A DNA stretch of 43,947 nt from a phage. A program made the translations under genes and the position numbers. Of this stretch, positions 1 through 24,039 are shown piece after piece (position 1 is the stretch's first letter; every line of letters begins with the position of its first letter). The DNA is taken from sequence record PZ671982.1, one strand, 5' to 3'. Below the pieces are notes generated by a model, which was not told the origin of the DNA, made no database searches, and saw nothing but the letters and a program-made list of their open reading frames with translations.

Positions 1-573
1 ATGAACAAAAGGGCTTATATCATGGCAGAAATCAAAGTTAAAGGCCGTCGCGCCAAACTGGACGGACGAGTGGCGGTAACCCCGCGCCGAAAACCAGGCG
101 AGCAAACCGAGCATACCAATCTCGGACCTGAAATCGAGTACGGAAAGCGCCGTAAAGGCGGCAAATGTGGACGCCCTACTGACTATAGATCCGTTTACTG
201 CGACCAGCTTCGCCGCTATTTTGCCGACGCCGACGCCTGGCAGGTCAACTACTCCGATAAAGGCGCTGCGCAAGTAATCCCTCGCAACAAAATGCCAACC
301 TTCGGTCGATTTGCCGCGGAAATAGGCGTGGGCGTAGCTTGCCTGTATCGCTGGGCGCGTGCACATGAGGAGTTCGCCGAGGCGATGGCGGACGCAATGG
401 AGTTGCAGAAAACTTTCCTGATGGAAGCTGGTGGCGTAACCATCGCGGCGGGCTTCGCTACGTTCCTGCTTAAAGCCAACCACGGCGTCCGGGACGATAT
501 TCCACTGGATGACGACGAAGATGATAACGGCGACGTCGTTGTCGAACCTACCGGCAAAGGTCAGGGTGATTAA
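1..573 (+). CDS. terminase small subunit (putative)
   Basis: ORF directly upstream of and overlapping the large terminase start (TAATG at 571-575); basic N-terminus, acidic C-terminal tail. Window begins at its ATG; an internal ATG at 22 with AAGGG 8 nt upstream may be the true start. Confidence 0.55.
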   Translation: MNKRAYIMAEIKVKGRRAKLDGRVAVTPRRKPGEQTEHTNLGPEIEYGKRRKGGKCGRPTDYRSVYCDQLRRYFADADAWQVNYSDKGAAQVIPRNKMPTFGRFAAEIGVGVACLYRWARAHEEFAEAMADAMELQKTFLMEAGGVTIAAGFATFLLKANHGVRDDIPLDDDEDDNGDVVVEPTGKGQGD

Positions 574-16306: not shown

Positions 16307-16914
16307 CCACGTTTAAATTGTACGGCGTCTTAGGGCGTCGTTTTGGTAAAGTGCATAAGATGGACTGCTTCACTCCGGGCGAGGGAATCACCGGCCTGTG
16401 TGTGAAGTTGCCAGGGTTACAAGACTTTTTAATGTCAGCCCACCTGGACAACATGATGTTCAAGGTGCGCAAGGGCGACCACACGATGACCGGCTATGAT
16501 GAGCTGGGCGAGTTCCACGGCAACCGCGTCGTCACCATCGCGCCGGTTATGACTGGCGCAAAAAGAGGGTTGGGACAATTGCTGGCGGGTGTCGCGATCG
16601 TAGTGGCGTCGTTCTATACGGGCGGACTCGCTACTGCCGCTTTCGGGGCTTCGGCTGCAACCGCTGCCGCTATCGGTACAGCGACGTTTTCGTTCGGCAT
16701 GTCGATGGCGCTGGGTGGCGTTATGCAATTGCTGTCGCCTCAACCGAAAGGATTGCAGACACGGCAGGATGTGGATAACAAGGCGTCGTATGCGTTCGGC
16801 GGTCCGGTAAACACGACCGCGCAAGGTACGGCACTTGGTGTATTATGGGGCGAGCGTGAGATCGGCGGCGCTATTATTTCAGCCGGAATCGTAACCGAGG
16901 ATTTGAACGAATGA
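16297..16914 (+). CDS. tail assembly protein I-like
   Basis: 205 aa with Gly/Ala-rich hydrophobic C-terminal half; overlaps K-like stop; precedes J-like gene. Confidence 0.6.
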   Translation: MAMTTFKLYGVLGRRFGKVHKMDCFTPGEGITGLCVKLPGLQDFLMSAHLDNMMFKVRKGDHTMTGYDELGEFHGNRVVTIAPVMTGAKRGLGQLLAGVAIVVASFYTGGLATAAFGASAATAAAIGTATFSFGMSMALGGVMQLLSPQPKGLQTRQDVDNKASYAFGGPVNTTAQGTALGVLWGEREIGGAIISAGIVTEDLNE

Positions 16915-19900
16915 CGATTATTTACGACGTCACGGGCCATAAAGGCGGCGGCGGCAAACAGCACACACCACAGGAGACGCCCGATAGCCTGCATTCGCTG
17001 GCTAAAATCCGCATCTTGCTTGCGCTGGGTGAGGGTGAATTCGAAGGTATTACAGACCCTAACGAATTACGGCGGCGCGTATATCTGGACGGAACACCGA
17101 TCCAGAACGCAGACCTGTCGGAAAACTTCCCAGGCGCGCGCGTGGAGTTCCGCCCGGGCACACAGCACCAGGATGTGATCCACGGATTTTCAGCGGTGGA
17201 AAGTGAGCAATCCGTTGGCGTAAAACTGGAAAACGGCACGCCGTGGGTGCGCCAGATTAACGACACCAGTCTTGACGCCGTGCGCATTCGTGTCGGTATT
17301 CCGGCCCTGTACACAAACGAAGATAATGGCGACCTGGTGGGCGGGCGCATCGACTATAAGATCGTTGTGTATACGGATAACGCGGACCCGCGTGAGTTCA
17401 GATTCGCCGCCGTTGGTAAAACAATGTCGCTGTATGAGCGCGACCACCGCATCGAATTACCTCCGAACGTTAACACCGGCTGGCGCGTGGAGGTGCACCG
17501 CATAACGGCAGACTCCACATCGGCGAAAGTGGTTAATGATATCCAGGTGCAATCCATCACTGAGGTTATCGACGCCCGCCTGCGTTACCCGCTAACCGCG
17601 CTGTTGTTCGTGGAGTTCGACGCTAAAGCGTTCCAGAACATCCCGCGCGTGTCCATTAAGTGCAAAGGTCGCAAGGTGCTGATACCGAACAACTACGACC
17701 CGATTAATCATACCTATTCCGGTGACTGGGACGGCACGTTTAAACGCGCATGGACGGATAACCCTGCGTGGCACTGGTACGATATTTGTATTACTGAGCG
17801 CTTCGGCCTCGGTCGGCGTATCAAACCGCAAATGCTAAACCGATACGCGCTCTACCAGATTGCGCAGCGCTGCGATCAGTTGGTCAGCGACGGCAACGGT
17901 GGCCGAGAAATCCGCTTTAAGAATGATATGTACATTCAGTCACAGACGGATGCCTGGACCGTGCTTAAGGATTTGGCTGCCATCTTCGCCGGAATGACCT
18001 GGTGGGGCAACCAGATGTTGAATATCGTCAGTGACCAACCGGTCGCAGCAGTGTCGCACACTATCACCAACGCCTCGGTAATTGATGGTCGATTCGACTA
18101 CGCATCTGGCAGCCAGAAAACTCGCTATTCCACATTCGCGGTAGCATACGGCAATCCGAAAAACCACTATGATGACGCTATCGCAACGGGCCAGCGCGTC
18201 GAACTGGTGCGCCGCCATAAGATCAACCGTCTTGATATCACGGCGATCGGCTGTACGCGCGAGTCAGAAGCGCAACGCCGTGGGCACTGGGCGCTAATTT
18301 CAAACCAGCTTGACCAGCAAGTTAGTTTTAAGGTGGGCATGGAGGGGTTATTCTTTATCCCAGGTAGCGTAGTCGCGATCGCAGATACTAATATTTCTGG
18401 CGGATTCGAGACTCGTGGCGGTCGGCTGTTGTCGGACCCAGGAACGCGTACCGTGCTGAACACGGACAGCGAAATCACGTTCCGCCCTGGCGATAAGTTC
18501 CTGGTACGCACCGATAGCGGAAATGTGGAGACTCGCGAGATCGCCAGCGTCAACGGCAACAAGGTCACGCTAAAAACCGCACTGGATGCCGACCCGATTC
18601 CCGACCAGCCGTTTTGCGTTGACGGCGATGATATCCAGTTGCATAAATTCCGCATCACCGATCTGGAGTATGACGACGCTACGAGCACTTTCTCGGTGCG
18701 CGGGATTGAATATAACGATAGCAAGTATGACGCCGTTGACAATGGCGCGCGGCTTGACCCAGGTATTTTCACGCAAGTGCCAGACGGTGTAATGAAGGGG
18801 CCGGAATCCGTGACCATCACCCCGTCGCAGATCTCATCGCAAGGCCAGCTAATCACCAACGTGGATATTGTATTCCCGCCGGTGAAGGACGCCGTGGTTT
18901 ATGAAATCCAGTGGCGGCGTACCAGCCTTCAGAATATGGAAATCCAGTGGGGTAACGACTGGGTGAACATCCCGCGCACGGCGTCGAATGGTGCGCACAT
19001 CCCTAACGTGTTCTCCGGCAACTACCAGGCACGCGTCCGCGCAATTGGTATGGGCGAAATCTCGTCCCCGTGGGTGTCTTCCGAAATCACGCCGGTGGAA
19101 GGTCGCCTCGGTGGGCTTAATGCGCCAATCATCACCAACGCGATTTCAGGTTTGCACCAGATCCTATGGAAGTGGAATCACAACAACGCTGCGACTGATA
19201 TCTCATACACCGAGCTTGAAGTGCGCAAGACGGGTGAAACGGAATGGAAATTCTTAACAAACGTCCCATATCCGGGCGCGGAGTACGCGCAAACGTCGCT
19301 GGAGTTCGGAATTTACCAGCAGTTGCGCGCCCGAGTAGCGGATAAAATCGGCAACCTGTCGGACTGGTCCGCCCCGTTCGAAGGCCAGGTGAGTGACAAA
19401 GTTGACGAGTACATGAAGGGGCTTGATGACGAGTTCTTGACTTCCGAGGATGGTAAACACTTCCAGGAAGCTATTAACACGATCCCGCAAGGCATTTATG
19501 AGTCAATGCTCACTGACGCCCAGCAGCTATTCAACGCCCGCGCCGAGTACAAAGGGATTTATGCGGAAATCAAGGTGGCGTATAACGTGGCGGCAGACGC
19601 CCACAAGGCCGTCGCGCAACTGGAAACGTTGATCGGCACTCGCCTTGACGATGCGGAAGCGGCAATCCACACGTTGCAGACCGCGCAAAGCACGCACGAA
19701 CAAGCGTTTGCCCAGTACCAACAAACTGTTGCCGCTAAGTTCGGGGAGCAGGAAGCCGCCATCCAGTCAGTGCAAACGGCAACGGCGGACGTGGCTGGCG
19801 CACTGGCGGAGTACAAGACCCAGGTGGCGGCACAGTTCGGTCAGCAGTCCGCCGCTATCGAGCAGAAGATGACGTCTTCGTTTAACCATGCTGGTGGCAG

Positions 19901-20363
19901 CGCCACATATAGCCTTAAGGCTGGCGTGACGTATAACGGGACTTACTATGACGCCGGTATGCAGCTTTCGGTCGTTGCGGACGGTGGCGCGGTTAAATCC
20001 CGCATCGCGTTCAAGGCAGACCAGTTCTACATCATGCACCCGTCGAATGGGTCGCTTTCGTCCGCGTTCATTGTTGACGGGGGGCAGGTGTATATTGACA
20101 CGGCACGCATCAAGGATGCGTCAATCAACTTCGCACAGATCACGGACACGCTGCAATCAAACAACTTCGCTTCCGGGTCGCGCGGATGGCGCATCCAGAA
20201 GGGCGGCGCTGCGGAGTTTAACGAAGTAACGGTCCGCGGCAGGCTGTACGCTGATAGTGGTGATTTTGCTTTTAACGGAATAAACAACACCGTGCAAATT
20301 AACGGGAATGGGGTGACGGTTAACCTGCCTGGAGGAGGGAGGGTTGTATTAGGTACATTCTGA
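16911..20363 (+). CDS. central tail fiber / host specificity protein J-like
   Basis: 1150 aa; N-terminus GHKGGGGKQHTPQETPDSL...EGEFEG resembles gpJ-type N-termini; largest tail gene after I-like gene. Confidence 0.8.
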   Translation: MTIIYDVTGHKGGGGKQHTPQETPDSLHSLAKIRILLALGEGEFEGITDPNELRRRVYLDGTPIQNADLSENFPGARVEFRPGTQHQDVIHGFSAVESEQSVGVKLENGTPWVRQINDTSLDAVRIRVGIPALYTNEDNGDLVGGRIDYKIVVYTDNADPREFRFAAVGKTMSLYERDHRIELPPNVNTGWRVEVHRITADSTSAKVVNDIQVQSITEVIDARLRYPLTALLFVEFDAKAFQNIPRVSIKCKGRKVLIPNNYDPINHTYSGDWDGTFKRAWTDNPAWHWYDICITERFGLGRRIKPQMLNRYALYQIAQRCDQLVSDGNGGREIRFKNDMYIQSQTDAWTVLKDLAAIFAGMTWWGNQMLNIVSDQPVAAVSHTITNASVIDGRFDYASGSQKTRYSTFAVAYGNPKNHYDDAIATGQRVELVRRHKINRLDITAIGCTRESEAQRRGHWALISNQLDQQVSFKVGMEGLFFIPGSVVAIADTNISGGFETRGGRLLSDPGTRTVLNTDSEITFRPGDKFLVRTDSGNVETREIASVNGNKVTLKTALDADPIPDQPFCVDGDDIQLHKFRITDLEYDDATSTFSVRGIEYNDSKYDAVDNGARLDPGIFTQVPDGVMKGPESVTITPSQISSQGQLITNVDIVFPPVKDAVVYEIQWRRTSLQNMEIQWGNDWVNIPRTASNGAHIPNVFSGNYQARVRAIGMGEISSPWVSSEITPVEGRLGGLNAPIITNAISGLHQILWKWNHNNAATDISYTELEVRKTGETEWKFLTNVPYPGAEYAQTSLEFGIYQQLRARVADKIGNLSDWSAPFEGQVSDKVDEYMKGLDDEFLTSEDGKHFQEAINTIPQGIYESMLTDAQQLFNARAEYKGIYAEIKVAYNVAADAHKAVAQLETLIGTRLDDAEAAIHTLQTAQSTHEQAFAQYQQTVAAKFGEQEAAIQSVQTATADVAGALAEYKTQVAAQFGQQSAAIEQKMTSSFNHAGGSATYSLKAGVTYNGTYYDAGMQLSVVADGGAVKSRIAFKADQFYIMHPSNGSLSSAFIVDGGQVYIDTARIKDASINFAQITDTLQSNNFASGSRGWRIQKGGAAEFNEVTVRGRLYADSGDFAFNGINNTVQINGNGVTVNLPGGGRVVLGTF

Positions 20364-20365
20364 AA

Positions 20366-20390
20366 CTAAAGCCCCGCCAGGGGCTTTAAT
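20366..20390. terminator. bidirectional terminator (AAAGCCCC-gcca-GGGGCTTT) between convergent genes
   Basis: Perfect stem flanked by A run 5' and T run 3'. Confidence 0.55.
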
Positions 20391-21321
20391 ACATGTTGGG
20401 AAGGTACGGCAGCAGAGTTGGGATCGTAACGTCGGGTCTGTTGCCGATTTCGTACCTTACAATTCGTGAGCCAGTTCCCGACCTTACATATCCGCCGCTC
20501 ATAACCACGCCTTTGTTTCTTAGTTCCTTGTAGGCGGGTATAGCCCTTGTATTGAACCCACACCTTAGTATTGGGAAGTAGGAGTCACCAATATACTGAT
20601 TGCTACCCGACAGACTTATAAACCCAGACACAATAAGTGGTCTGGTAACTGTTGAAAGTGTACAGGCGCCTTTGTGGTTAAATATGTTTAACCCCGGCCC
20701 CGGCACGGGCGCAACCATCTGGAAAATAACCAAATCCATAGTAACACTTCCGGGTGTGTGCCCGGTATCATTTGTGTTTATGTTTGTGCATATCAACCGA
20801 TTAACACCGTCGTACTCAACTGAAACACCAGAATTATCCCACCTGCCGAACGGTATGCCGTATATTGGAAGGGTGTAACTATCATGGAATGATATAGTTT
20901 GAGCAAATTTGCAGACAAGCAACCTGTCAGTTGTGGTTATCGATGTGAAATCCGTGCTGTCGGCAACGTAAAGCCCCTGCCCTGTCGATGACCTAAGAAC
21001 CTCAACTACAGTCCCTGAAAACTGCGTTACGCGGTCTGGATAGCCGTTCTCATAGCCAATAGATATTGTTCCGCTGGATTCTGTTGAAGAAAAGCCCTTT
21101 ATATAATAAACCTCAACACCACGATCTAGTTCGAAGGAGTATGCGCCATTGTTCGGCAGAAGAAACCTTGAAGCCCCTTCATTACCTTGAATAGGGAATG
21201 ACTTGCTAAACCCGCCACTTGAAACATTGAAGTTCCCCGCAAAATTCAAGGCACGCATACCCGCGGTGATTGTCATCGGGTTGCGTCCGTCATTAAGATC
21301 AATGTAGATACCTTGTGCCAT
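20386..21321 (-). CDS. hypothetical 311-aa Gly/Ser/Thr/Asn-rich protein; candidate receptor-binding protein
   Basis: Long uninterrupted - strand ORF in AT-richer DNA, ATG 21321 overlapping upstream lipoprotein stop (TAATG); no signal peptide; beta-rich composition. Confidence 0.5.
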   Translation of the reverse strand: MAQGIYIDLNDGRNPMTITAGMRALNFAGNFNVSSGGFSKSFPIQGNEGASRFLLPNNGAYSFELDRGVEVYYIKGFSSTESSGTISIGYENGYPDRVTQFSGTVVEVLRSSTGQGLYVADSTDFTSITTTDRLLVCKFAQTISFHDSYTLPIYGIPFGRWDNSGVSVEYDGVNRLICTNINTNDTGHTPGSVTMDLVIFQMVAPVPGPGLNIFNHKGACTLSTVTRPLIVSGFISLSGSNQYIGDSYFPILRCGFNTRAIPAYKELRNKGVVMSGGYVRSGTGSRIVRYEIGNRPDVTIPTLLPYLPNMY

Positions 21322-21551
21322 TAGTTCCACTCCCGAGAGCCATAATCACGAACTGAGCCACCATGCCCTTTAATTCCGTCATAACGAATATCAACTTCAC
21401 CCGCCGGAACAACTACACCGCCTTTCCATTTAGCTACACATACGCCGCTTGCTTGTGTCGCGCACCAACCATCCGGACGCGGGCCAGAAGAGCAACCAAC
21501 AGCCACACCCACAACCACGGCAATGATTGCAGATTTGATTAAAGTTTTCAT
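21321..21551 (-). CDS. small lipoprotein (76 aa), candidate Llp/Cor-type superinfection-exclusion protein
   Basis: ATG 21551 with RBS GGAG; signal peptide with lipobox VAVGC; Cys-containing mature part. Confidence 0.6.
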
Positions 21552-21582: not shown

Positions 21583-21610
21583 GTATTACACCGCTCGATC
21601 AAGAATGCAA
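21583..21610 (-). promoter_or_regulatory. sigma70-like promoter (TTGCAT-16-TAATAC) for lipoprotein operon
   Basis: Hexamers read on - strand; -35 is part of ATTGGTTGCAT motif. Confidence 0.4.
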
Positions 21611-21631
21611 CCAATTTATGAGGATTTAGCT

Positions 21632-23437
21632 ATGGCAGCGGGCACACTATCCGTAACGAATAACAGCAAGGCGGTTGTAGGGGTCGGCACAACGTTTACC
21701 TCGTTTAACGCCGGCGACTTCTTAACGCTGGTGGTAGGACAAGTCCCCTACACCGTAGCAATCGCATCTATCGAAAGCGACACGGCGCTTACTCTGGTGT
21801 TACCGTTCGACGGCCCAACGGCAACCGGCCTAGCGTGGGATGGCGTTAAGCGCGATACCATGTCACTGGCAACGATGGGCGTTACCGTACAGGCACAGAA
21901 AGCATTGCGCTTGATGATTGCAGATGAAAACAACTGGCGTGCGATCTTCGGCGACGCTGAAGAAATTACCGTGACGTTACCTAACGGGCAAGTCATGCAG
22001 GGTATGTCATGGGGCTACCTGTCGGAATTGCTTAAGAACGTAGATCCGGTTGAGATGCGCGACCTCGCAGCGCAAGCCGAAGCGTCAAAATCGGCAGCGC
22101 AAGGATTTCGTAATGAGGCCGAAGGCTTCAAGAACGATACGCAGGCCGTCAAAGACCAGACCAACCAGATTAAGGCGGATACGCAGGCCGTCAAAGACCA
22201 GACCAACCAGATTAAGGCGGATACGCAGGCTATCAAAGACCAGACGAACCAGATTAAGGCGGATACGCAGGCTATCAAAGACCAGACGAACCAGATCAAG
22301 ACTGACACCGGCGTTATGAGGGACGAGGCCAACACCGCGAAGACTGACGCGCAAGCTGCCAGCACTGCCGCGCAGGGATTCCGCGATCAGGCCGAGGAGT
22401 GGGCGCAAAGCGTTAACGCGGATAACCTGCTAACCAAATCTGGCAACCTTGCTGGGCTTGCGGATAAAACGGCGTCGTGGGCGAACCTTATGCCCCCCGG
22501 CCCGCTTCGACTCGGAGCGGACCCCATTGCAGATCTGGATGCCGCGACTAAACGCTGGGCGTTGGCCTTATTAAACTATGGCACCGCGATTGATAGATGG
22601 ACGGTACTCTCCGAAGTCGCCACCAAACCCGCTGACGGCAGTGTCGTTGAAGGCGGATCACTCTACTCACGTTATGCCGTTAATGGAATTGCGGAAGCGG
22701 ACATGGCCTTGCGTATCAGAGCGGTGATCGGGGAGGAATACCACGCGCGTCTGGGTGTGTACAACCAAACAAACGGCCGCACCGCCAATTACGACTTTAA
22801 TGATCGAGGCACTTTCTCCGCGCAAAGCCTGCGTTCTTTGGGTCAAATTGACTCCGATGGTGGTATTACTATCCAGAACCAGGGATGGCCCGGCATAACC
22901 TTTAAATCGAATAGGTATGCATCGCCGGACACGCAGGTTGGCGCAATGACATTAATGGAAGCAACGGGGGTAGATGGGGACATCTCTACTGTCAGCCTTA
23001 TCAGGCGGCGTGGGGATGGCAGCAGCACGGGGCAAATCATTGTAACATTCCCAACCACGGCAGGGGTTATCGCGCTGCAAGGTACGTCGGGTCGCGAGTA
23101 TAAGAAAGATATCACCGATGCTGACGCAAGCGAAGCTATGGACCGCATTAACCGCCAGCGCCTTGTTACCTTCGTGTACAAGGACGACGAGCAGCAGCGC
23201 GTGCGCTTCGGTGTTATCGCAGAGGAAGCGGAGTTAATCGCGCCGCAATATATCAAGCACATCGAAGTACCCGTCGAGGATATCCTCGACGAAGACGGCA
23301 ACAAGATCGGGGAGAAAACGGTAGACCGACCGTCCGTAGACGTTAACCCGATCGTGATGGACTTGATGGGGTGTATTCAATATCTCAATAAGCAGGTGGA
23401 GGAATTGAAGGCCGAGATCGAGGCGATGAAGAAATAA
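21632..23437 (+). CDS. lateral (L-shaped-type) tail fiber with C-terminal intramolecular chaperone-like domain
   Basis: Start ATG 21632 (RBS GAGGA); four 14-aa tandem repeats; C-terminal ~110 aa resembles autoproteolytic chaperone domains of phage fibers. Confidence 0.65.
   Translation: MAAGTLSVTNNSKAVVGVGTTFTSFNAGDFLTLVVGQVPYTVAIASIESDTALTLVLPFDGPTATGLAWDGVKRDTMSLATMGVTVQAQKALRLMIADENNWRAIFGDAEEITVTLPNGQVMQGMSWGYLSELLKNVDPVEMRDLAAQAEASKSAAQGFRNEAEGFKNDTQAVKDQTNQIKADTQAVKDQTNQIKADTQAIKDQTNQIKADTQAIKDQTNQIKTDTGVMRDEANTAKTDAQAASTAAQGFRDQAEEWAQSVNADNLLTKSGNLAGLADKTASWANLMPPGPLRLGADPIADLDAATKRWALALLNYGTAIDRWTVLSEVATKPADGSVVEGGSLYSRYAVNGIAEADMALRIRAVIGEEYHARLGVYNQTNGRTANYDFNDRGTFSAQSLRSLGQIDSDGGITIQNQGWPGITFKSNRYASPDTQVGAMTLMEATGVDGDISTVSLIRRRGDGSSTGQIIVTFPTTAGVIALQGTSGREYKKDITDADASEAMDRINRQRLVTFVYKDDEQQRVRFGVIAEEAELIAPQYIKHIEVPVEDILDEDGNKIGEKTVDRPSVDVNPIVMDLMGCIQYLNKQVEELKAEIEAMKK
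22136..22303 (+). repeat. 4 tandem copies of a 42-bp unit inside tail fiber gene
   Basis: Near-identical units starting 22136, 22178, 22220, 22262 encoding DTQA(V/I)KDQTNQIKA. Confidence 0.85.
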
Positions 23438-23440
23438 ATA

Positions 23441-23466
23441 AAAGGGGCCGTATGGCCCCTTTTTTA
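23441..23466. terminator. bidirectional terminator (GGGGCC-gtat-GGCCCC, A run 5', T run 3')
   Basis: Between convergent fiber gene and last early gene. Confidence 0.6.
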
Positions 23467-24039
23467 GTTTGAGTTTTCCCAATCCATTTTGCGCCGCACC
23501 AGCGGGCTTTCGTAATATTCCTTCCCATCCACTTCCACTAAAGGCCAGTCGTTCACTATAACGTATGGCTCCGCGATATCCTCAATCACGCCGTGCGCGC
23601 TATGTTGTCCGAAATCTACGCCCACCAGGATAACCCCGGCAACGCGACGGGTGAGGTATTCGCGAGCGCAACGGGCCTCGACCAGTCCGCGACGGATGCC
23701 GCTGGTAGCTTTTACCTCGTAGGCCCAGACGGCATCAATCATATGTTCTCGGAAGTCGGGGCCGGACTTAACCTTGCGTTTACCGACCATGATAATATCT
23801 CCGCGGTCGATAGTGTTAGCGCTAAACAGGCCGGTACGCATTAGCAAACCTTGCGGGATACAGCTACGCCCGCCTGCCTGCCCTTCGAGGTACATGCCAG
23901 CAAACATTTCGCCTAGCACACCTACGAGTCTGCTTTGCTTGCACGCGTCAGACTTGTATCGCCACTGGTCAAACTCGATGCTTGCTATCATTGCCGCCAG
24001 GTGGAATTGTTTACCGGTTATTTCGTATTCGCCGTACAT
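23464..24039 (-). CDS. hypothetical protein, possible PD-(D/E)xK-type nuclease fold
   Basis: 191 aa, RBS GAGGA; motif GDIIMVG...IDAVWAYEVK suggests D...ExK core (weak). Confidence 0.45.
   Translation of the reverse strand: MYGEYEITGKQFHLAAMIASIEFDQWRYKSDACKQSRLVGVLGEMFAGMYLEGQAGGRSCIPQGLLMRTGLFSANTIDRGDIIMVGKRKVKSGPDFREHMIDAVWAYEVKATSGIRRGLVEARCAREYLTRRVAGVILVGVDFGQHSAHGVIEDIAEPYVIVNDWPLVEVDGKEYYESPLVRRKMDWENSN

Follow-up and report, generated by a model that had tools for sequence, protein, structure and literature searches.

A modular lateral tail fibre of a Dhillonvirus with a tandem 42-bp repeat array in its predicted coiled-coil rod and a putatively self-cleaving Peptidase_S74 chaperone

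The gene described here encodes the usual side tail fibre of the genus Dhillonvirus, a protein built from four modules: an anchor, a rod, a receptor-binding domain (the tip) and a chaperone. It lies in a 43,947-nt stretch of phage DNA (record PZ671982.1), referred to below as the window. We consider it highly probable that the protein is a homotrimeric lateral fibre with exchangeable modules, that its rod carries a young repeat array amplified by slippage or recombination, and that its Peptidase_S74 domain cleaves itself off.

We suggest that the anchor attaches the fibre to the tail tip, while the rod would form a trimeric coiled coil of ~18 nm that keeps the tip clear of the tail; the beta-rich tip would then bind a surface glycan, most likely the O-antigen, as the first reversible contact. 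The chaperone would nucleate trimer folding of the tip and subsequently cleave the chain at Thr485-Ser486, with Ser486 as the nucleophile and Lys491 as its activator, leaving a mature chain of 51.5 kDa with the tip unmasked. The four 42-bp units probably arose recently, when the last two-heptad unit of the rod was amplified and homogenised locally, either by slippage during replication or by unequal recombination. Since 42 bp corresponds to exactly two heptads, gain or loss of a unit disturbs neither the reading frame nor the heptad register of the coiled coil; such changes would thus be tolerated, each altering the rod by ~2 nm, and the net outcome would be a rod one heptad (~1 nm) above the family norm.

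The fibre gene and its setting

The fibre is a chain of 64.8 kDa and matches PHROG 1980, 'tail fiber protein', with E 2e-128. A GAGG ribosome-binding site at 21620-21623 lies 8 nt 5' of the Met at 21632, and the MAAG that begins there is invariant in 46/46 aligned homologues. A longer reading frame starting at 21605 was rejected: it lacks a Shine-Dalgarno sequence, and the homologues begin at the Met at 21632.

Judged by its sequence, the window is the genome of a Dhillonvirus (an E. coli phage) with HK578 as its nearest relative; over its first 25 kb, identity to HK578 is 94%, with 94% of that length covered. A gpJ homologue of 1150 aa (16911..20363, with Phage_Tail_Tip and FNIII-A_GpJ domains) is followed by minus-strand genes (DUF6453 and lipoprotein) and then by the fibre gene, which therefore lies downstream of the gpJ homologue and a small receptor-binding/exclusion locus, the position of the lateral fibre in Dhillonvirus. 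This fibre locus is variable within the genus, and O-antigen binding has been proposed for it (PMC8594841); long lateral fibres have been described on Dhillonvirus virions (PMC12309495). The earlier note, made from the sequence alone, had called the gene a lateral tail fibre, and this identification holds, with 73% identity to the annotated lateral tail fibre of the Dhillonvirus GeorgBuechner and a place in the variable fibre locus of the genus. The best match in a collection of 5.8 billion proteins is 84% identical, and the exact protein is absent there. Downstream, a terminator separates the fibre gene from a convergent 191-aa gene.

The same note held that the repeats give rise to spurious antisense reading frames. 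Three repeat-derived frames with repetitive translations are indeed embedded in the gene; two of them are antisense, while the third is on the coding strand in another frame.

Most columns of aa 1-141 are invariant across 46 homologues (alignment A2), as expected of an attachment module conserved in the genus, and a resemblance to the N-terminal part of gp20, the distal tail protein of Avs-1 (PDB 23gd_B, E 6e-6), extends over aa 1-73. The AlphaFold2 (AF2) model of the N-terminal domain had a pLDDT below 50, owing to an overly uniform alignment, and was set aside.

Table 1. Features of the fibre gene and its surroundings (window coordinates; aa, residues of the fibre)
Feature	Position	Strand	Basis
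Lateral tail fibre gene, 601 aa plus stop	21632..23437	+	ORF list, RBS, homologue starts, PHROG 1980
N-terminal virion-attachment module, aa 1-135	21632..22036	+	near-invariant across genus
Alpha-helical coiled-coil rod (predicted), aa 139-260, ~17 heptads	22046..22411	+	AF2 single helix, heptad columns
Upstream degenerate unit AAQGFRNEAEGFKN, left partner of flanking AAQGFR repeat	22094..22135	+	sequence comparison
Four tandem 42-bp units, DTQA(V/I)KD QTNQIK(A/T), 8 heptads	22136..22303	+	TRF, direct reading
Older diverged heptads of rod (DTGVMRD EANTAKT DAQAAST AAQGFRD QAEEWAQ)	22304..22408	+	conserved in relatives
Linker/neck, aa 263-314, conserved NLLTKSGNLAGLADK...W.NL motif	22418..22573	+	conserved in alignments A1, A2
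Receptor-binding domain (predicted), aa 315-485, beta-rich	22574..23086	+	LtfA similarity, AF2
Predicted scissile bond Thr485-Ser486	23084..23089	+	'GTSGREYK'; spacing as in T5 pb1
Peptidase_S74 intramolecular chaperone, aa 486-601, 13.3 kDa	23087..23434	+	Pfam, fold, Ser/Lys conservation
Predicted activating Lys491	23102-23104	+	five residues downstream of Ser486
Mosaic segment	22348..23597	.	97.3% nt identity to E. coli lambdoid prophage (blastn vs L020)
Repeat-derived embedded ORF	22015..22365	-	ORF list
Repeat-derived embedded ORF	22085..22408	-	ORF list
Repeat-derived embedded ORF	22050..22319	+ (other frame)	ORF list
Bidirectional intrinsic terminator	23440..23463	.	10-bp GC-rich stem, T-run on both strands

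The repeat array and the rod

Tandem Repeats Finder (TRF) reports the array at 22136..22300 with a period of 42, 3.9 copies, 96% matches and a score of 281, by far the strongest in the window. Read directly, the units start at 22136, 22178, 22220 and 22262 and encode, from copy 1 to copy 4, DTQAVKDQTNQIKA, DTQAVKDQTNQIKA, DTQAIKDQTNQIKA and DTQAIKDQTNQIKT; copy 2 repeats copy 1 exactly, while 3 nt differ between copies 2 and 3 and again between 3 and 4, so that the four units are near-perfect (0-3 bases between neighbours), as the earlier note had described them. A degenerate pattern of unit plus junction had 3 matches in the window and none in 100 shuffles. The degenerate unit upstream of the array (22094..22135) shares 27 of 42 nt with 22367..22408.

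The array supplies 8 of the ~17 heptads of the rod. Over aa 136-262 the heptad register is unbroken. The residues I/V/F/L characterise one core column (L S F F V I V I I I I I M A A F W) and T/A the second (M A A A T T T T T T T T T A A A A V); apolar or beta-branched residues recur at these two positions, which are spaced by 3 and 4 residues in turn. AlphaFold2, run on monomers, gives one helix over aa 139-260, with a block-mean pLDDT of 85-98 over aa 161-260. Such continuous periodicity within a single helix is that of a coiled-coil shaft, which, at ~0.15 nm per residue, would be ~18 nm long if it is trimeric. The trimeric S74 chaperone and the three-helix bundle seen by cryo-EM in LtfA of phage DT57C suggest, by analogy, that the fibre is a trimer.

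Across 110 relatives, the rod is 40, 96, 103, 110, 117, 124 or 131 aa long, all values being 5 mod 7, and a single length is common to 81 of the 110 (74%), the window's rod being one heptad longer. The 14-aa unit is present in 1-3 copies in the relatives and in 4 in the window; in the same slot of the rod, the relatives have 5-7 diverged heptads and the window 8 homogenised ones. The relatives carry older 21-, 42- and 63-bp repeats (61-91% identity), and an array of 3 x 42 bp arose independently in another Dhillonvirus (L022). In the PaulFeyerabend fibre (P0022), 12 heptads have been lost exactly between two flanking AAQGFR units, and a laboratory gain of one shaft repeat is known from the T5-like phage DT571/2 (PMC4728585). 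The proposal that the heptad units can alter fibre length is thus borne out between relatives, whose rods vary in 7-aa steps only; the natural length step is one heptad (21 bp) and not 42 bp alone. Because 81 of the 110 relatives share the same rod length, this length looks constrained rather than free, with changes being rare or selected against.

In IMG/VR, the exact junction CAGATTAAGGCGGATACGCAGGC was found in 4 contigs, each with a single junction and with no period-42 array like that of the window; one of these contigs (L004) has only an unrelated 24-bp repeat. The lineage-specific core of the B unit had no matches in JGI metagenomes or IMG/VR, and the degenerate tandem pattern DTQ(A/G)(V/I)KDQTNQIK(A/T)-DTQ, which matches 3 times in the window, had none in either collection.

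Linker and tip

The linker aligns to residues 480-583 of DT57C LtfA and is the recombination joint at which rod and tip modules are joined. Beyond it, aa 315-598 match LtfA 788-1071 with E 1e-125, and identity to LtfA is 69.5% over the C-terminal 301 aa (tblastn). The AF2 block-mean pLDDT of the tip is ~70-88, and the fold comparison gave no match for aa 315-485. In LtfA, the C-terminal region sets O22-like specificity (PMC4728585), and the tip is by this kinship a probable O-antigen binder; as it has no structural match, the predicted glycan binding rests on the 69.5% identity to one genetically mapped protein. The same kinship suggests a host range of E. coli with an O22-like O-antigen. With the tips of deposited Dhillonviruses, the allele shares no more than 53-64% identity.

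We also observed that the 3' half of the fibre gene is ~97% identical at the DNA level to a lambdoid E. coli prophage (protein P0020; a remnant ORF in the prophage). When the tip DNA was compared by megablast with 5,426 complete E. coli genomes, no match emerged, and among GTDB species representatives the tip module had one distant match only, in Pseudocitrobacter (53% over the chaperone).

The C-terminal chaperone

The earlier note had likened the C-terminal ~110 aa to intramolecular chaperones and proposed an HMM search for Peptidase_S74. This search finds PF13884 at aa 487-539 (E 1.2e-9; 38.7 bits, cut-off 22). The match lies at the far C-terminal end of the 601-aa fibre, as is characteristic of the family, and the likeness is substantiated by a domain of 116 aa. 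Its fold matches all four solved S74 chaperones (MyRF ICA, endoNF, GA-1 gp12 and T5 pb1), with an alpha-beta part, a long beta-hairpin and a terminal trimerising helix; phmmer detects the MyRF ICA domain at E 0.002. An S74 chaperone has already been stated for the Dhillonvirus JLBYU60 (PMC12309495).

The catalytic dyad Ser486/Lys491 is invariant in 58 aligned sequences, and the run Thr485-Ser486-G-R-E-Y-Lys491 has the same spacing as Thr1263-Ser1264...Lys1269 in T5 pb1, for whose chaperone the autocleavage mechanism has been described (PMC4690869). From this sequence correspondence we infer that the fibre cleaves itself at Thr485-Ser486. Arg458-460 and Asp462 lie 24-28 residues before Ser486 and are at best tentative candidates for the T5 folding-sensor Arg1250, contributed by a neighbouring chain, and for Asp1239 of the oxyanion site, which precede the T5 scissile bond by 14 and 25 residues.

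Alternative explanations

The array could be a contingency locus, where frequent slippage produces mixed fibre lengths in ~2-nm steps and selection fits the reach of the fibre to the depth of the O-antigen or capsule. We think this quite unlikely: although near-perfect units, with copies 1 and 2 identical, favour slippage, copy number does range from 1 to 4 between isolates, and young arrays arose independently at least twice (window and L022), the rod length is identical in 74% of relatives, the net change in the window is one heptad only, the units of most relatives are diverged and slippage-resistant, and such tandem units are absent from the metagenome collections searched. Slippage should also work poorly on four copies of a 42-bp unit, in comparison with classical contingency tracts, whose units are short. 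Were length tuning nevertheless at work, it would mean that a virulent siphovirus adapts its reach by host, and the independent appearance of young arrays in two lineages would be a hint of selection acting repeatedly. An assembly artefact, in which short reads collapsed or expanded the repeat, is in our view very unlikely. Identical 42-bp copies are poorly counted by short reads, and the exact protein is absent from the large protein collection, where its best match is at 84%; yet frame and heptad register are intact, a separate assembly (L022) has its own 3-copy array, and the array is just 168 bp long with internal markers A-A-B-B', short enough for reads of the usual 150-250 nt to span or phase it.

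For the C-terminus, the S74-like domain might stay on the mature fibre, either capping it structurally or contributing to the binding site. That the family members P0057, P0069 and P0073 have no Pfam S74 match suggests that the fibre scaffold is not strictly dependent on S74, but the invariance of the dyad, the Thr-Ser junction shared with T5 pb1 and the conservation of the 116-aa domain over otherwise unrelated tips, as expected of a folding module, all speak for cleavage, as does the inability of the uncleaved T5 form to compete for the receptor (PMC4690869); we hold retention to be highly improbable. Finally, many homologue records are named 'putative tail tip protein', and the resemblance of the first 73 aa to a distal tail protein could likewise be taken to mean that the product is a central tail tip component rather than a lateral fibre. 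This we regard as extremely unlikely, given that the central fibre is the gpJ homologue, that the L-shaped fibres of T5 and DT57C have a parallel layout, from anchor through coiled coil and tip to S74 domain, and that Dhillonvirus virions are described with long lateral fibres (PMC12309495).

Significance

The value of the analysis of this lateral fibre lies mainly in annotation and phage engineering; the current view of phage fibres is unchanged. For a small fibre of 601 aa, it provides clean boundaries between anchor, rod, linker, tip and chaperone, and the natural variation, with indels in the rod in whole heptads only, gives a practical rule for tip swaps and length changes. Besides this virulent Dhillonvirus, a T5-like phage and a lambdoid (temperate) prophage carry the tip-plus-chaperone cassette, which illustrates how host-range modules cross phage families and lifestyles.

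Comparison with known systems

Earlier work on Dhillonvirus already covers the S74 domain as well as the variable fibre locus, which makes the finding an ordinary one. The lateral fibres of the genus (GeorgBuechner, Envy/Sloth, JLBYU37, HH3; clusters P0001-P0013) share the locus, the invariant anchor, the linker, the S74 chaperone and a rod of the DTQAIKD/QTNQIK type with the fibre studied here; over the full length, the metagenomic clusters P0001-P0013 are 73-84% identical to it, GeorgBuechner being P0013 (73%). They lack the four homogenised units, having 1-3, usually one plus diverged heptads.

DT57C LtfA (PDB 8hqz chain d; Golomidova 2016, PMC4728585; Ayala 2023, PMC10713586) is alike in tip and chaperone, and both proteins have a coiled-coil shaft after the anchor (trimeric in LtfA, and presumably so here), an NL(S/A)(D/G)LAD linker, an S74 domain predicted to cleave itself, and tandem shaft repeats, the copy number of which changed in a laboratory mutant on the T5-like side. 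The anchors are unrelated, LtfA being inserted into the LtfC ring; moreover, LtfA has 1076 aa and carries a second fibre, LtfB, compared to 601 aa here, and its shaft repeat is a 19-aa motif rather than a heptad pair. DT57C itself belongs to the Demerecviridae with a genome of ~108 kb, whereas the window is a 44-kb Dhillonvirus.

The L-shaped tail fibre pb1 of T5 (PDB 4UW7/4UW8; PMC4690869) is larger (1396 aa), with a similarity below phmmer detection, and its 'bullet' tip fold was not recovered for the tip of the window's fibre. The passengers of two other S74 chaperones are unrelated to that of the fibre: in K1F endoNF (PDB 3GW6) it is a sialidase beta-propeller with a triple beta-helix, and in MyRF ICA (PDB 7DC3) a eukaryotic transcription factor. 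These two chaperones are the founding members of Peptidase_S74.

Architecture of the fibre and its gene neighbourhood

Sequence comparison identifies the window as the genome of a Dhillonvirus, an HK578-like siphovirus; Escherichia phage HK578 matches its first 25 kb with 94% identity across 94% of the length, and some 120 other Dhillonvirus records show coverage above 80%. We place the start of the lateral tail fibre at the ATG at 21632, because GAGG lies 8 nt upstream and MAAG is invariant at this Met as the first residues of 46 of 46 aligned homologues; the ORF opening at 21605 was set aside as a start on the same grounds.

Features of the fibre locus and modules of the fibre protein
Feature	Position	Strand	Remarks
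gpJ homologue	16911..20363	+	1150 aa; FNIII-A_GpJ, Phage-tail_3 and Phage_Tail_Tip domains
DUF6453 protein	20386..21330	-	314 aa; Pfam E 1e-124; PHROG 'membrane protein, moron'
Small Phage_lipoprotein family protein	21321..21551	-	PF24052
Lateral tail fibre gene	21632..23437	+	601-aa product; ORF ends at 23437
Four 42-bp units	starts 22136, 22178, 22220, 22262	+	read directly
Anchor	aa 1-135		almost invariant across the genus
Rod	aa 139-260		one uninterrupted helix (AlphaFold2)
Linker	aa 263-314		NLLTKSGNLAGLADK...W.NL motif
Tip	aa 315-485		beta-rich domain, block-mean pLDDT ~70-88
Peptidase_S74 intramolecular chaperone	aa 486-601		Pfam PF13884, 38.7 bits (cut-off 22)
Bidirectional terminator	23440..23463		10-bp stem, after the fibre gene
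Convergent gene	23464..24039	-	191 aa; PHROG 10558; no Pfam hit

The two minus-strand genes separate the gpJ homologue from the fibre gene. Homologues of the Phage_lipoprotein region are labelled 'super-infection exclusion protein' in phages ZCEC10-12, and the pair also follows gpJ in the E. coli prophage L020 (~75% nucleotide identity, over a short stretch only), while in another Dhillonvirus (L022) two unrelated plus-strand ORFs occupy its slot. The C-terminal third of the gpJ homologue has an alanine/glutamine-rich repetitive helical stretch of its own (…AQSTHEQAFAQYQQTVAAKFGEQEAAIQSVQTATADVAGALAEYKTQVAAQFGQQSAAIEQ…). The 191-aa gene directly downstream of the fibre is conserved in Dhillonviruses.

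A probably young 42-bp array in a continuous heptad rod

Four near-perfect 42-bp repeats had been claimed in the earlier note, and both direct reading and Tandem Repeats Finder bear this out, the latter returning just one strong array across all of the window (at 22136..22300, with a period of 42, 3.9 copies, 96% matches and a score of 281). Copies 1 and 2 show no differences; copy 3 departs from copy 2 by three changes, GCC to GCT, GTC to ATC (Val to Ile) and ACC to ACG, and the differences of copy 4 from copy 3 are confined to the 3' end, where ATTAAGGCG becomes ATCAAGACT (Ala to Thr). A degenerate pattern of unit plus junction has three matches in the window and none in 100 shuffles. The spurious ORFs attributed to the repeats are all present with repetitive translations, and 22015..22365 and 22085..22408 are indeed antisense, but 22050..22319 lies in another plus-strand frame.

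The heptad-like character ascribed to the units holds for the rod as a whole: written in rows of seven, residues 136-262 form two apolar columns, 4 and 3 residues apart, without a register break (L S F F V I V I I I I I M A A F W; M A A A T T T T T T T T T A A A A V). Each 42-bp unit encodes precisely two heptads, DTQAxKD and QTNQIKx, whose core residues are Ile and Thr, and 8 of the ~17 rod heptads come from the array. Block-mean pLDDT is 85-98 across residues 161-260.

We retrieved 120 homologous protein clusters and measured rod length in the 110 with both rod anchors locatable, as the stretch that separates DPVEMR from the KSGNLAGLAD-type linker. The rod is 124 aa in 81 relatives, 117 aa in 19, 103 aa in six, and 40, 96, 110 and 131 aa in one each, so that all lengths leave a remainder of 5 on division by 7. 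Measured in nearly the same way, from anchors chosen a little differently, the rod of the window is 132 aa and the mode 125; it is one heptad above the mode and thus belongs with the 131-aa class, the longest seen.

Typical relatives hold five to seven diverged heptads in the array slot (DTNTIKT QTNQIKA DTQAIHD ATNTIKT QTNQIKT DTQAIKD QTNQIKT), and between their successive two-heptad units only 7-15 of the 21 nt in a heptad are the same (last pair excepted), whereas in the window 18-21 of 21 are; the array therefore looks as if the terminal DTQAIKD-QTNQIKT unit had recently been amplified and homogenised, with older heptads replaced. Most relatives have one copy of the unit, about two dozen have two, three have three, and the window alone has four. 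The fibre of L022 (P0104), which has a different tip, carries its own array of three 42-bp units, 1-3 nt apart, so young arrays appear to have arisen more than once. Older 21-, 42- and 63-bp repeats (61-91% identity) are found in other members, HK578 included. The HK578 rod (L017 3450..3620) is built from a different heptad family, TAKNDAV / TAKTGAETARDQAN, and contains separate tandem repeats of 21 bp and 42 bp that are 83-84% identical; two-heptad tandem units would thus have arisen independently in this second rod type.

A diverged direct repeat brackets the rod (AAQGFRNEAE at 22094, AAQGFRDQAE at 22367; 27 of 42 nt identical), and in the fibre of BASEL phage PaulFeyerabend exactly the 12 heptads between both AAQGFR flanks are gone. 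The T5-like phage DT571/2 gained one shaft repeat in the laboratory (PMC4728585). Taken together, these comparisons support the suggestion that repeat-mediated events alter the length of the fibre while keeping both reading frame and heptad register.

A mosaic tip

Window positions 22348..23597 share 97.3% DNA identity with part of a lambdoid prophage (L020 6519..7769). This prophage lies in an E. coli contig of 222.6 kb (Logan SRR9990184), and its zntB-dbpA-ttcA flank is 100% identical to E. coli chromosomes. The shared segment runs from the heptad just 3' of the array through tip, chaperone and terminator into 134 bp of the convergent gene; the prophage fibre (P0020) differs in having an unrelated N-terminus. 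As the prophage has just a 65-aa remnant of the 191-aa protein, matching its C-terminal ~40 aa, the comparison indicates that the cassette moved from a virulent Dhillonvirus-like phage into the temperate prophage. The tip DNA was absent from the 5,426 complete E. coli genomes searched. A second Dhillonvirus-type fibre (P0004) has a tip 98% identical to that of the window but a different, TAKxxA-type rod, so rod and tip would be cassettes that can be swapped independently of each other, with the conserved GFRDQAEEWAQSVNADNLLTKSGNLAGLAD linker as their joint.

The deposited phage protein that best matches the C-terminal 301 aa comes not from a Dhillonvirus but from the T5-like phage DT57C: it is LtfA, at 69.5% identity. 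LtfA (8hqz chain d) is also the only strong match to solved structures (E 1e-125 over residues 315-598), in a map that resolves only its N-terminus (PMC10713586). The O22-like O-antigen specificity of DT57C (E. coli 4s) was mapped by recombination to the divergent C-terminal part of LtfA (PMC4728585); by this homology an O22-like or related O-antigen is the probable ligand of the fibre. The BASEL paper (PMC8594841) describes the fibre locus of Dhillonviruses as variable and gives the O-antigen role proposed for it.

Interpretation

We think it very likely that the gene encodes a trimeric side fibre: its coiled-coil rod would tolerate insertions and deletions of whole heptads, its array would be a young product of slippage or unequal recombination, and its S74 domain would fold the tip and then remove itself at Thr485|Ser486. 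That the array instead serves as an adaptive, length-tuning contingency locus seems improbable; one rod length is strongly preferred (74% of relatives), and the net effect of the array on the modal rod would be one heptad (~1 nm). Sequence scans of IMG/VR and JGI metagenomes found no sister genomes with other unit copy numbers. It is somewhat less probable still that the copy number is an assembly artefact.

Retention of a non-cleaving C-terminal domain is judged just as unlikely as such an artefact. The autochaperone-like domain of the earlier note is supported by the Pfam match that its proposed HMM search yields, by Foldseek matches with probability 1.0 (7dc3, the MyRF ICA domain, and 3gw6, the endosialidase chaperone) and by conserved residues: at the junction Gly-Thr485|Ser486-Gly-Arg-Glu-Tyr-Lys491, Ser486 and Lys491 are two of the five invariant columns in a 58-sequence alignment with otherwise 40% identity on average. 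The precursor has a predicted mass of 64.8 kDa, and cleavage would yield a mature chain of 51.5 kDa and a chaperone of 13.3 kDa. Least probable of all is a central tail-tip role instead of a lateral fibre. 

Residues 1-135 are the presumed virion anchor. The first 73 of them (21632..21850) are similar to the N-terminal part of gp20, the 199-aa distal tail protein of Aeromonas siphophage Avs-1 (PDB 23gd_B, E 6e-6), and match PHROG 9922 'minor tail protein', which hints at a Dit-like module that might dock at the tube/tip junction.

The earlier interpretation is supported and was already known, and the trimeric side fibre we favour is ordinary: it adds another allele to a family of fibres already described and is a tidy case of heptad-quantised repeat variation. 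The fibre has its NLLTKSGNLAGLADK...W.NL linker motif in common with DT57C LtfA, for whose C-terminal part self-cleaving pfam13884 domains were predicted (PMC4728585). In T5 pb1, the L-shaped tail fibre, the scissile bond is Thr1263|Ser1264 and the serine is activated by Lys1269 (PMC4690869), a Ser-Lys spacing identical to that of Ser486 and Lys491 here.
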